Positions 24,368-29,094 of a stretch of DNA of 47,714 bases are shown here, piece after piece. The notes beneath the pieces are model-generated. The model ran no database searches, was not told the origin of the DNA, and saw nothing but the letters and a program-made list of their open reading frames with translations. The stretch's first letter is position 1. The number at the start of each line of letters is the position of its first letter. The stretch lies in the IMG/VR virus record IMGVR_UViG_2541047681_000007. The stretch is one strand, 5' to 3'. The stretch is from a virus (lineage: Duplodnaviria; Heunggongvirae; Uroviricota; Caudoviricetes). A program made the translations under genes and the position numbers.

Positions 24368-24579
24368 CAGAACCTCGCCAGCCGGTACCCGGGATGCCCC
24401 CGTCGTCGTGTAATCAGAGCCGCAAGGCGGCGCTCCCACTCCTGCCGTCCCTGCCGGATCTCAGATAAGTTTTCCATGGTCATCTGCTGACCATTAAAGG
24501 TGACGGATTTTCCGTCCAGCACCGCCATTTCAGCTTCCGTATAACGCTGAATCATGGCTTCGATATCATTCTGGTTCAT
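24367..24579 (-). CDS. Head-tail joining protein, gpW-like
   Basis: about 70 aa between terminase and portal, C-terminus ...RRRGHPGYRLARF resembles lambda W; ATGA overlap with terminase stop. Confidence 0.5.
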   Translation of the reverse strand: MNQNDIEAMIQRYTEAEMAVLDGKSVTFNGQQMTMENLSEIRQGRQEWERRLAALITRRRGHPGYRLARF

Positions 24580-25886
24580 AACCATCCTCCGGAAGTCAGC
24601 CAGGGGTTAACATCGTCAGTTACTGTTTTCTTCCGTTTTTGTTTTTTAACAGGCGTGGATACCGGTTCCGGTGAGGGTGACGGTTCGGTACTGTCCGGGA
24701 CACACTCCAGCCAGGTTTCCCGGCTCGCCCACTCCGGTGCATCCGGCCAGCGGATCTTTTCGTATCCATGCAGAATGACCAGAGCCTCGGCATACACCAT
24801 CAGGTCAAAAGCTTCGTTGGCACCGCGACCCGGCTTACTCCATTTCCCGTCACTACTCCGCTCTTCATACGTCAGTTCGTCGTAAAACCAGCTCCCCAGC
24901 CAGTCAGGGAAATGCACATAGCCGGGACCTGGCGAGTCACGCCATAACGCGTTATTCACCCGGTCTTTCAGGGCATCCGTCTGAAGAAGCCAGAGCGGCA
25001 CATCACCTGCGGCCTGCGCTCGTCGGCCCGTTCGTCCGGTGTTATCAGGGAATGTACGGGTGATCAGTTTTGCGCGCCGGATGCTGTCGCCCTTAAACAG
25101 GTAAATACGTTTACCAAGGCCATCACGACGGCAACGACGCCAGAATTTATAGGCATTATCAGTGACCCCGTCTTCACCGCCGGAGTCCACCGCCATTGCC
25201 ATCAGTCGCATTTGTTGAGAAGGATCGGAGGCCAGCGGCCAGCTTTTATGAAAAACATCCGTCAGCAGGACATCCCAGTCTTCCGGATAGCTGGCCGGAT
25301 CAATTCGCTGGCTCTCCCCGTCGCTGTCACCGCGCAATGACTGCGTAATGTTGTAACGATCAATAATCCAGCGTTCGCCACGGCTGCCATAGCCCGTTAC
25401 CTGAACCACAAAACGGCGATGACGTCCCGCCTGCACATCCACTGTCGCCACAAGGAAATTAATGCCATCCGGCACACTGCGGGAAGGAACTGGCTCTGCC
25501 CGCTGCTCAAGCAGTTCACTTTTTCGTTGCTCCATGCTGGCACGGGGAAGATAAGGTAATCCCCAGTCGGTATTGATAACCGTCTTGAGTGTTTCTTCAC
25601 TTCCGGTTGTCTCGTATTCCTGTTCTGCAGTAAGCAGTTTGTAAACGAGTTGCGAGAGTGTCTGGTAAGCAGCTGCCGGACCCTCCATCCAGAATGACGC
25701 AATACGTGAGCGTCGGGGATCACCATAACGACTGCCATCCGCATTGATGGATTCACCATCCCGCAACCAGACCCCACGTCCGTTCAGCTCACGTTTTTGT
25801 TCAGTATGAGACGACAATAACTCAGTCCGCCTGGCGCCGATTATTCTGGCCGGTTTTGTAACCTGAGTGTCATTTACATGATCCAA
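24576..25886 (-). pseudogene. Terminase large subunit, C-terminal (nuclease) fragment separated from N-terminal part by IS insertion
   Basis: GVWLRDG...FLVATVDVQAGRHRRFVV...MAMAVDSGGEDG resembles lambda gpA C-terminal region; lacks ATPase domain, which lies about 2.3 kb away beyond the IS. Confidence 0.75.
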
Positions 25887-25897
25887 CAGGAAATGGC

Positions 25898-27397
25898 GTG
25901 ACGCTCAATACTTCTCAGGTCAGTTACTATATGACTCAGCGTAAGAAAGGTATAACTCAGCATATCTCGGCCATGAAGGCTGGTATCTCAGTCCGTTCTG
26001 GTCGTCGGATCGAAAAAGGAGAGTGGGCAAAAAACAGTGTTCGGCACTGGCGCACACGCAAAGATCCTCTGGAAGCTGTGTGGGACAGCATGCTTGTTCC
26101 TCTGTTGAAAGAGAGGCCGGCTCTGACACCAACAACTCTGCTGGAGATGCTACAGGATAAATATCCCGGCCAGTACCCCAACAGCCTTCGAAGAACAATG
26201 CAACGGCGGGTCCGCGAATGGAAGCTACAGTATGGTGCAGAGCAGGAGGTCATGTTCCGCCAGCGACATCAGCCCGGTCTGCGAGGTCTGTCGGACTTTA
26301 CTGAACTGAAAGGTGTAGTTGTCACCATCGCCGGTAAGTTGTTGGCGCATAAGTTGTATCACTTCCGTCTGGAATGGAGCCACTGGAGCTGGATGCGGGT
26401 TGTGCTGGGTGGTGAGAGCTTCTCTGCTCTGGCTGAAGGTCTGCAGGAAGCCCTCGGACAACTGGGCGGAGTGCCGGTAGAACATAAAACGGACAGCCTG
26501 AGGGCAGCATGGAAACAACAGGGCGAAGATGGACGCCGCGAGCTGACTGAGCGTTATGCTGCTCTCTGTCAGCACTACGGAATGCAGGGCGTACACAATA
26601 ATGCCGGTCGGGGCCACGAAAATGGCTCGGTTGAAAGTGCCCACGGACATCTGAAAAGGCGTATCTGTCAGGCGCTGATACTGCGGGGCAGTAACGACTT
26701 CAGCACCATAGAAGAATATCAGGCCTTCATCACTCAGCAGGTTATGCGGCACAACCGTAACAATCAGGATCTGGTCAAGGAAGAACGTCTTCATCTGAAA
26801 CCGCTGCCGCTTCGTCGCAGTGCTGACTATGATGAGCTGACTGTGAGGGTTAGCCGCAGCAGTACCATCAATGTGAAGCACGTCGTCTACAGCGTACCTT
26901 CCCGGCTTGTAGGTCAACTGTTACGGGTCCGGTTATGGGACGATCGTCTGAGCTGTTACGTTGGCAGCAGCGAGGTCATGAGCTGCCCACGTGTCAGACC
27001 AGAAAAAGGGAAGACGCGGGCCCGTCGTATCGACTTCCGACATGTGATCGACAGTCTGGCAAAAAAGCCCGGTGCGTTCTGCCATGCAACGCTGAGAAAT
27101 GACATCCTGCCAGACGATGAATGGCGGAGGCTGTGGCGTCGCTTATGTAATCATCTGGAACCCGACATGGCAGGCAGGCTGATGGTACATGCTCTGAAAC
27201 TGGCTGCAGGATACGACGATATCTCAGTCGTGGCAAAAGGTATGGAGCAGATGCTGAATACCCCGGGAAACGTGGATCTGCACCGGCTGATGCGCTTCCT
27301 GGGTATAAAGGAAAAGGCGTTGCCGGTAGTCAATGTGAAACAGCATAACCTGAGCAGTTATGAGCAACTACTGCGTGGCAAGGGAGGTTCGCAGTGA
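25898..27397 (+). CDS. istA: IS21-family transposase IstA
   Basis: N-terminal HTH, DDE-type catalytic region; likely true start at ATG 25931 (MTQRKKGITQHISAMKAGIS). Confidence 0.85.
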   Translation: MTLNTSQVSYYMTQRKKGITQHISAMKAGISVRSGRRIEKGEWAKNSVRHWRTRKDPLEAVWDSMLVPLLKERPALTPTTLLEMLQDKYPGQYPNSLRRTMQRRVREWKLQYGAEQEVMFRQRHQPGLRGLSDFTELKGVVVTIAGKLLAHKLYHFRLEWSHWSWMRVVLGGESFSALAEGLQEALGQLGGVPVEHKTDSLRAAWKQQGEDGRRELTERYAALCQHYGMQGVHNNAGRGHENGSVESAHGHLKRRICQALILRGSNDFSTIEEYQAFITQQVMRHNRNNQDLVKEERLHLKPLPLRRSADYDELTVRVSRSSTINVKHVVYSVPSRLVGQLLRVRLWDDRLSCYVGSSEVMSCPRVRPEKGKTRARRIDFRHVIDSLAKKPGAFCHATLRNDILPDDEWRRLWRRLCNHLEPDMAGRLMVHALKLAAGYDDISVVAKGMEQMLNTPGNVDLHRLMRFLGIKEKALPVVNVKQHNLSSYEQLLRGKGGSQ

Positions 27398-28149
27398 GCA
27401 ATATCCATCACCTTGAACGCAGCCTGCGTAAACTACGCCTGACACGAGTTGGAGCTGAATGGCACGCTCTGGAAAAACGAGCACTGGCAGAAGGCTGGAC
27501 ACCATCGCGCTATCTTCTGACGCTATGCAATGAAGAACTCCTGTGGCGCGAGAGTGAAAAACTGCGTCGTTATAAAAAGGAGGCCCGGTTGCCAGTTGCC
27601 AAAACGCTAAGCGAATACGACTTCAGTCAGGTGCCGGAACTGAATGGAGCTCAGTTCCGGCAACTCTGTGAAACGACAGACTGGGTTGATGCAGGAGAAA
27701 ACGTTCTGCTGTTCGGAGCCAGCGGGTTGGGGAAAAGCCATCTGGCGGCAGCGATCGTGGATGGCGTAGTAGGCCAGGGCTACCGGGCCCGGTTCTACAG
27801 CGCAGGAGAGTTGTTGCAGGAACTACGTAAAGCCAGAGCGCAGTTGAAACTGAATGAGCTGCTACTGAAACTGGATCGCTACCGGGTGATAGTGGTGGAT
27901 GATCTTGGCTATGTCAAACGCGACAGCGCCGAAACGGGAGTACTGTTCGAGTTAATAGCGCATCGCTATGAACGTGGGAGCCTGGTGATAACCAGTAACC
28001 ATCCGTTCAGCATGTGGGGCAGCATCTTCGTGGATGAGACTATGGCGGTGGCGGCGGCAGACCGGCTGATCCATCACGGATATATGTTCGAACTGAAAGG
28101 TGAAAGCTACAGGAAAAAGACAGCGAAGGCAGTAACAAGCGCGACTTGA
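27394..28149 (+). CDS. istB: IS21-family ATP-binding helper IstB
   Basis: Walker A GASGLGKSHL, Walker B VIVVDDLGY; start overlaps istA stop. Confidence 0.85.
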   Translation: MSNIHHLERSLRKLRLTRVGAEWHALEKRALAEGWTPSRYLLTLCNEELLWRESEKLRRYKKEARLPVAKTLSEYDFSQVPELNGAQFRQLCETTDWVDAGENVLLFGASGLGKSHLAAAIVDGVVGQGYRARFYSAGELLQELRKARAQLKLNELLLKLDRYRVIVVDDLGYVKRDSAETGVLFELIAHRYERGSLVITSNHPFSMWGSIFVDETMAVAAADRLIHHGYMFELKGESYRKKTAKAVTSAT

Positions 28150-28197
28150 TGTCGCACTGAAGGGTGCGGCCAGTATAGTTGGCGCGAGTCGGCAAAA

Positions 28198-29094
28198 CTA
28201 GTTGACGTCTAATAGTTCAGGCATAATCCGTCCTGAACAGGAAGGACACTGAATATAAGCCGCCTCACTTGCCAGCACGGGATCGGCAATATCACGGAAA
28301 CCAGCAACCACATCGCCGCAGGGCTGAAAATACTCACCACAGTGTGGACAGGGCCAGTACCAGCGACGGCGATCGCCACGGTTATAGAGCGACAGTATCC
28401 CCGTGGTTGGTGGAGCCTCATGCGGTGAAGTCCGTCGCCATTTCACATCCTTCACATCCCTGCCGGGGGAACTCTCCACCAGCGTCATACCACTGGACAT
28501 AAATGTGGTGGTACGTTTTGAGGCAAGAGAGAAGGCATCCCCCTCGCCATCAATATCTTCCGGAAAACGGTCATAATCCGTCAGCGCCACGCATTTATAA
28601 TCTGATGAGGACATGATATTGACTGACGGCCAGCCGATTTTCAGGTAGTTGCCAGCAAGGAATGTTCTGTCATAAACGTTGTTGTCATTTTTGTTCGGAC
28701 TCAGGCGACTGACCACTTCCGGGCTGACGCGAAACGTTCTGGCAAGTCGTTTTTTGGAGTGTTCGCGGGCTTTTTCCTCCGTCATCTGAATGATCAGCAT
28801 ATCAGCAGGATCGCAAATCACATTGTAAATCACCCAGCCGTCAATCAGGCCGATAGTCTTGCCAGTTCGTGCCGGGCCAACAAATATCACTGCGTCGTAT
28901 TCACGCGAAGCCAGGCAGTTCATCGGCTCAATAACATACGGTGCCACCAGCGGATCCCACGGGACTGAATTCCCGGCCCCCATGGGCACCCGCATATACT
29001 GAGCAACGGCATCAGCAACCAGCATTCGTCTCGGTGCGCGAAGGATATAACCTGAATCGGTTCGTGCTGCCTTTGCGGTTTCCTGATTCAGCAT
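28198..29094 (-). pseudogene. Terminase large subunit, N-terminal (ATPase) fragment truncated by IS insertion
   Basis: Walker A VGPARTGKT, CxxC...CxxC zinc-ribbon-like region, then stop inside IS-proximal sequence; TAATG overlap with small subunit stop. Confidence 0.75.

Follow-up and report, generated by a model that had tools for sequence, protein, structure and literature searches.

The stretch of DNA analysed here, IMG/VR virus record IMGVR_UViG_2541047681_000007 (47,714 nucleotides, hereafter the window), holds a lambdoid prophage of the class Caudoviricetes whose large terminase subunit gene, terL, is interrupted by a complete copy of ISEc10, an insertion sequence (IS) of the IS21 family. 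The arrangement is very probably the outcome of a single recent transposition of an active ISEc10 copy into a gpA-family terL gene of a mEp460-like lambdoid prophage, with loss of DNA packaging as the inferred result. The element, its immediate flanks and the two parts of the gene are arranged as follows.

24576..25804, minus strand: 3' fragment of terL, codons 294-700 plus the duplicated E293 codon (Pfam GpA_nuclease, E 7.8e-86)
25799..25804: left copy of the target-site duplication, GTTCAG (from the junction and the overlap of reference alignments)
25805..28214, plus strand: ISEc10, complete, 2,410 bp
25805..25852, plus strand: left terminal inverted repeat region of ISEc10, a 48-nt imperfect repeat
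25898..27397, plus strand: istA, IS21-family transposase, 499 amino acids (aa) (NCBIfam NF033546, Pfam Mu-transpos_C_2, RefSeq annotation)
27394..28149, plus strand: istB, AAA+ helper ATPase, 251 aa (Pfam IstB_IS21, NCBIfam IS21_help_AAA)
28167..28214, plus strand: right terminal inverted repeat region of ISEc10, the partner of 25805-25852
28215..28220: right copy of the target-site duplication, GTTCAG, terL nt 875-880 (from the junction)
28215..29094, minus strand: 5' fragment of terL, codons 1-293 (Pfam GpA_ATPase, E 3.6e-70)

Insertion junctions and the restored terminase gene

The window was aligned at the DNA level to four reference loci with intact terL (L001, L002, L003 and L011), in all of which homology stops at 25804 and resumes at 28215, and the subject coordinates of the alignments overlap by 6 bp, equal to the duplication. 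GTTCAG is perfect and lies directly outside both ends of ISEc10. In silico removal of 25805-28220, comprising the IS and one duplicate, produces a single minus-strand open reading frame (ORF) of 700 aa, in agreement with an initial annotation of this DNA, which had described a clean insertion that keeps nearly the full coding length and had looked to intact homologues for the junction and the duplication. The restored gene (2,103 nt) aligns end to end and ungapped with genes annotated as 'phage terminase large subunit family protein', which are present in 1,902 complete Escherichia coli genomes (at least 80% coverage) at up to 5 matching places per genome. Compared with its best match, from strain 602687 (H66), it carries 2 nucleotide substitutions over the 2,103 nt and the one amino acid change Y66F. 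Both domains of the restored protein are complete, with GpA_ATPase at residues 41-304 (model positions 2-247 of 247) and GpA_nuclease at residues 326-644 (model positions 1-294 of 294), and the insertion point, after codon 293, lies inside the former, at its C-terminal edge, and before the latter, and thus not in the linker between the domains. No solved structure is related to restored TerL by sequence at E <= 0.001.

The two ORFs that flank the element both run into it. The N-terminal ORF (28198-29094, minus strand, 298 aa) specifies native residues 1-293 and then reads LLDVN and a stop from the IS, such that its final 17 nt (28198-28214) are IS sequence made up of five codons, one base of which is shared with terL, and the stop codon. 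The C-terminal ORF (24576-25886, minus strand, 436 aa) is without a native start and opens at a TTG inside the IS (25886); its first 82 nt (25805-25886) are IS sequence that supplies 27 codons and one codon spanning the junction. The initial annotation had assigned the ATPase domain to 28198..29094 and the nuclease domain to 24576..25886; Pfam agrees with the domains, but the coordinates take in IS sequence, and terL itself occupies 28215-29094 and 24576-25804. Its insert size of about 2.3 kb, likewise, is the gap between the two ORFs, whereas the element measures 2,410 bp. The native 5' fragment is 99.7% identical to residues 1-293 of intact TerL, possesses the Walker A motif GPARTGKT at residue 73 and lacks about 11 final residues of the ATPase domain model. 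The native 3' fragment is 99.3% identical to residues 293-700 and keeps the whole nuclease domain and the C-terminus.

Both fragments are colinear with one intact terL in four reference loci and so do not come from different genes. A genome may carry as many as 5 related terL genes, and IS-mediated rearrangements between E. coli prophages are common, which lends some plausibility to an origin from two prophages or genes united by recombination between two ISEc10 copies. However, such an event would leave differing repeats at the flanks, whereas both flanks are GTTCAG, and the fragments meet in the reference gene without loss or gain. Both are also about 99.9% identical to the same intact allele, as judged from the 2 mismatches in 2,103 nt, and the gene order on both flanks is colinear with mEp460-like genomes, so that a recombinant origin is exceedingly improbable.

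The chimeric 298-aa product was used for an exact-sequence look-up, by which two further records of the insertion were located. The source draft scaffold, KE698832.1 (GCA_000456065.1), is 100% identical over the 12.9 kb compared to window positions 22198-35094, insertion included, and a separate 1.8-kb Logan contig from Sequence Read Archive (SRA) run SRR10723464 is 100% identical to positions 28186-29997, entering the right-hand junction by 29 nt. Misplacement of a repeated IS into an intact terL during short-read scaffolding would be in keeping with a draft source, with the multiple copies of ISEc10 in many genomes (up to 22 places per genome) and with a Logan contig that reaches 29 nt inside the IS and then ends, which is usual for short-read contigs at repeats. 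A misjoin, however, would not yield a perfect 6-bp duplication exactly at the IS ends, of the length seen at other ISEc10 copies, and the independent read set joins terL nt 1-880 directly to the right-hand end of the IS. An intact terminase ORF hidden by an assembly error, which the initial annotation had named as a way in which it could be wrong, is ruled out for practical purposes by the duplication and the SRA contig.

The insertion was searched for with a probe over both junctions and is absent from all 5,426 complete E. coli genomes searched; it is a rare, lineage-restricted allele. The two halves of terL show no further decay, suggesting that the insertion is recent, and it appears to be a single event. 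Matches of the H26 type, which run 13 nt beyond the IS, were rejected as an unrelated island-edge insertion with its own GCTGAG duplication, the extended match reflecting chance similarity of the target.

Identity and anatomy of the inserted element

Over its full 2,410 bp the element matches ISEc10 copies from CFT073 and from many further genomes with 100% identity, which bears out and refines the earlier assignment to the IS21 family, and DNA-identical copies carry the RefSeq annotation (Prokaryotic Genome Annotation Pipeline, PGAP) 'IS21-like element ISEc10 family transposase / helper ATPase IstB'. CFT073 holds 7 copies, and near-full-length ISEc10 is found in 526 of the 5,426 complete genomes. 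The tips of the element, TATGAGACG on the left and CGTCTAATA on the right, are common to five other copies (L004 to L008), all 2,410 bp long, which lie at various sites in different genomes, among them genomic islands, another prophage and a region rich in ISs. The ends of ISEc10 are therefore fixed independently of the terL locus. The five copies are flanked by direct repeats of unrelated sequence, 6 bp long at four copies and 7 bp at one, and no usable consensus for a target-site preference emerges from the six duplications GTTCAG, GCTGAG, GTCTTC, CTGATC, GGTGCC and GTTTGT(C). Terminal inverted repeats of the IS21 family are imperfect and 11-50 bp in length, and the target-site duplications are 4-8 bp. 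The 48-nt repeat of ISEc10 is imperfect, with 71% complementarity, and in the terminal 9 nt 8 of 9 positions agree (TATGAGACG versus TATTAGACG).

IstA matches the NCBIfam equivalog model NF033546 transpos_IS21 with 227 bits (cut-off 160) over model positions 2-293 of 294. IstB matches Pfam IstB_IS21 (E 9.5e-62) and NCBIfam IS21_help_AAA (266.7 bits, cut-off 200), and possesses a Walker A motif, GASGLGKS, at residue 108 and a Walker B motif, VIVVDD, at residue 165. The Pfam and NCBIfam scores of the terminase fragments, IstA and IstB lie far above what chance would give. The start of istB overlaps the stop of istA by 4 nt (GTGA), and both genes lie on the plus strand, in the opposite orientation to the terminase fragments between which the initial annotation had placed them. 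ISEc10 is accordingly antisense to the phage late operon, and the GC skew changes sign over 26-28 kb, as expected for an oppositely oriented block. Given that the copy is intact and identical to a CFT073 copy, it is presumably active.

Predicted effect on packaging and induction

ISEc10 is laid out as an IS21-family element, with an IstA DDE transposase and an IstB AAA+ helper, and its insertion duplicated the 6 bp of a staggered cut at terL nt 875-880. The gene now specifies a 298-aa product with native residues 1-293, and residues 294-700 are left as a promoterless, start-less remainder. The gpA protein of lambda is one polypeptide in which the N-terminus binds TerS and cos, the ATPase translocates DNA, the C-terminal nuclease nicks cos and the extreme C-terminus docks to the portal. 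By analogy with lambda, these functions need a single polypeptide, which is here cut at residue 293, and packaging is thus almost certainly abolished and the prophage defective: it would fail to mature and package its genome.

The large-terminase ATPase and nuclease are separable domains, and a split enzyme could be envisaged in which the ATPase fragment associates with a nuclease fragment made from an internal start and the prophage stays viable. In-frame TTG starts are present inside the IS for the C-terminal ORF, a gene caller proposes a 413-aa product, and Q-modified late transcription may read through the IS. Against this, the break costs the ATPase domain model roughly its final 11 residues, the C-terminal piece has no native ribosome-binding site or start, and translocation and cos cleavage by gpA-type enzymes such as that of lambda depend on one polypeptide docked on the portal through its C-terminus. 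A scan in and around the IS for an outward promoter or a strong antisense terminator returned counts not above shuffled expectation, and so nothing points to the IS driving expression of the C-terminal piece. No gpA-type terminase that is naturally split turned up among the intact homologues compared. A working split terminase is therefore very unlikely, and loss of packaging is the preferred reading.

Several points weigh against the account given so far. The tips of ISEc10 are TA...TA, whereas the ends of IS21-family elements are usually quoted as TG...CA; a TG is present 2 nt inside the left end, where the right arm reads TT. The rule is not universal, and since six copies share these ends, the identity of ISEc10 is unaffected. 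The Pfam integrase-core model rve does not score on IstA at E <= 0.001, and the protein is assigned to its family by the NCBIfam model and by its identity to annotated copies. Loss of packaging is itself read from gene structure, and terminase could be supplied in trans by a co-resident mEp460-like prophage, a rescue made conceivable by the up to 5 matching places in genomes with related terL genes. Rare precise loss of the IS, which would restore terL, may also occur.

The term defective is to be read narrowly, as the genes for excision, replication and lysis look intact. With full-length int/xis, repressor/cro, replication, Q, lysis, head and tail genes, the prophage may still excise, replicate, lyse its host and make empty proheads and tails. 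It may accordingly be inducible and lethal to its host without releasing transducing or infectious particles, and the cargo at both prophage ends would stay expressed from the lysogen.

A further possibility, to which little credence is given, is that TerL(1-293), expressed together with intact TerS, acts as a dominant-negative 'decoy terminase' that hinders packaging by superinfecting or co-resident mEp460-like phages. Residues 1-293 would keep the TerS-interacting N-terminus and Walker A while lacking the nuclease and the portal-docking end; the evidence for such a decoy consists of the intact N-terminal ORF and the intact terS upstream. If it existed, the insertion would both fix a defence-rich prophage in the chromosome and add packaging interference.

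The host prophage, its cargo and its relatives

The genes adjoining terL are intact on both sides.

22859..24439, minus strand: lambda-family portal (Pfam Phage_portal_2, E 6e-82; full-length match at 98.8%)
24367..24585, minus strand: gpW-like head-tail adaptor, overlapping the terL stop (PHROG 118, E 1.4e-37; 100% identical to the reference)
29094..29585, minus strand: small terminase subunit, terS (DUF1441), directly upstream of terL (Pfam E 4.6e-44; PHROG 141, E 2.7e-77)

A 146-aa ORF between terS and the lysis genes (29575-30015, minus strand) is without a family match and is probably spurious, and the cos site is expected in the non-coding stretch between terS and the lysis genes. Judged by its proteins, the host element is a mEp460-like lambdoid prophage, and restored TerL is 99.3-99.9% identical at the protein level to TerL of the propagated phages mEp460, Ayreon, phi458 and PhiR47_1 (99.4% for the first three). 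For a check of completeness, about 50 annotated reference genes were translated and aligned to the window, of which about 45 gave proteins that align full length. All head, tail, lysis, Q-adjacent, replication, repressor/cro, xis and int genes with a counterpart are full length; the exceptions are an internal stop in a DNA methyltransferase gene, a truncated PerC gene and a missing N6-methyltransferase gene adjacent to the latter. These exceptions are non-essential.

The DNA methyltransferase (N6_N4_Mtase; 31645-32697, minus strand) is interrupted at codon 54, immediately beyond the DPPY motif, by an in-frame TAA (32536-32538). It aligns over its full length and is elsewhere 98% identical to the 350-aa reference, and the remaining ORF encodes 281 aa; a comparably shortened N6_N4_Mtase of 291 aa is annotated in a close circular relative. 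PerC/YfdN (about 36771-37103, minus strand) is cut to the first 105 of 164 residues and the adjoining phage N6-adenine methyltransferase of the relatives is absent, a pattern suggestive of a small early-region deletion.

The circular relative (L011, NZ_CP148393.1) is a 44,611-bp record labelled as a plasmid that carries terL in intact form, an integrase gene and, in its cargo region, a ParA-family gene; it may represent either a phage genome after excision or a phage-plasmid. The locus with the best intact terL match (L001, NZ_CP189657.1, strain 602687) has its tape-measure gene split at 31529-33983 by ISEc22, a member of the IS66 family. Different ISs thus inactivate different morphogenesis genes within the mEp460-like prophage lineage.

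Nothing in the main references corresponds to the interval 32863-34236, in which a short PF06530 Q gene is accompanied on the other strand by a gene of low GC content (about 30%). This orphan gene (33022-33816, plus strand, 264 aa; a longer ORF starts at 32899) occupies a moron slot between Q and the lysis cassette and is oriented opposite to the late genes. Its product has no match in Pfam, PHROG or PADLOC, nor in 50,697 phage records, and the gene is present in 3 of the 5,426 complete E. coli genomes. With 28 homologues the protein forms a real family, and in Kosakonia and Pectobacterium prophages the gene occupies the same slot just downstream of Q. An AlphaFold (AF2) model of the protein (predicted local distance difference test score, pLDDT, 79.6) has an alpha/beta domain at the N-terminus and, after it, three long hydrophobic helices; it has no significant fold match in the PDB.

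The cargo genes are located near the two ends of the window.

1-1209: EcoRII-type restriction endonuclease (100% identical to a reference protein)
1244-2719, minus strand: C5-cytosine methyltransferase (100% identical to a reference protein)
3084-3857: LEM-3-like GIY-YIG protein (matches PADLOC PD-T4-3 end to end, E 7.6e-140)
8106-8705: Lom
44951-46735, plus strand: AAA ATPase (best PADLOC matches PtuA/AriA/GajA-like; PHROG 3940)
Within 44951-47714, after the AAA ATPase, plus strand: D12 adenine methyltransferase (PD-Lambda-5_B, E 5e-124)

The defence block at 1-3857 lies at the tail-fibre end of the prophage and adjoins ssrA in a related genome. At the other end, the int stop is only about 60 nt away from the start of the AAA ATPase gene as annotated in a reference, and the ATPase and D12 methyltransferase genes would lie either between int and the attachment site or just beyond that site. 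The interval from int to the tail fibre is a cargo region in the circular relative too, and both cargo blocks are therefore plausibly part of the phage, with att sites beyond the window. Full-length protein matches support the view, already held in the initial annotation, that the defence and lysogenic-conversion cargo is intact; it comprises the EcoRII-type pair, PD-T4-3, Lom and the PD-Lambda-5-like pair.

The element, the phage lineage and IS-mediated prophage decay are all already known, and only the particular insertion allele is undocumented. The insertion explains why the prophage in GCA_000456065.1 should yield no infectious particles even though it looks complete to prophage-finding software, and the analysis provides exact boundaries of the pseudogene and the mobile element. 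The lesion in terL is a single recent event that a 2,416-bp deletion could in principle restore. It also adds a further case of ISs immobilising prophages that carry defence genes, here an EcoRII-type restriction-modification system, PD-T4-3 and a PD-Lambda-5-like pair. The value of the finding lies chiefly in annotation and strain biology, and it opens no new question.

mEp460 and its relatives Ayreon, phi458 and PhiR47_1 are lambdoid siphoviruses with a gpA-type terminase, a DUF1441 small subunit, a lambda-family portal and a fusion of ClpP protease and major capsid protein. The window, the related prophages and the 44.6-kb circular relative share the gene order terS, terL, gpW-like adaptor, portal, ClpP-protease/capsid, tail genes, J, Lom and tail fibre. 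The prophage in the window differs from the mEp460-like references in its interrupted terL, in its cargo modules and in the Q region at 32863-34236, with its orphan moron and short PF06530-type Q. IS-inactivated lambdoid prophages of E. coli, of which the IS629 insertions in the O157:H7 Sakai prophages are an example, represent the same phenomenon, a morphogenesis gene hit in an otherwise complete prophage, whereas the IS and the target gene differ here. ISEc10 of CFT073 and ST131 is also among the closest known systems, and the window copy is identical to it in sequence over all 2,410 bp, with the same istA and istB products, termini and 6-bp length of the duplication. It is a known mobile element that can switch genes off or reduce their expression, having moved de novo beside lpp in CFT073 under selection with a globomycin analogue (PMC7482066) and being present in the afa promoter of some ST131 strains (PMC8764528). 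The window copy differs from the element of CFT073 and ST131 in its target alone, terL nt 875-880 of a mEp460-like prophage.

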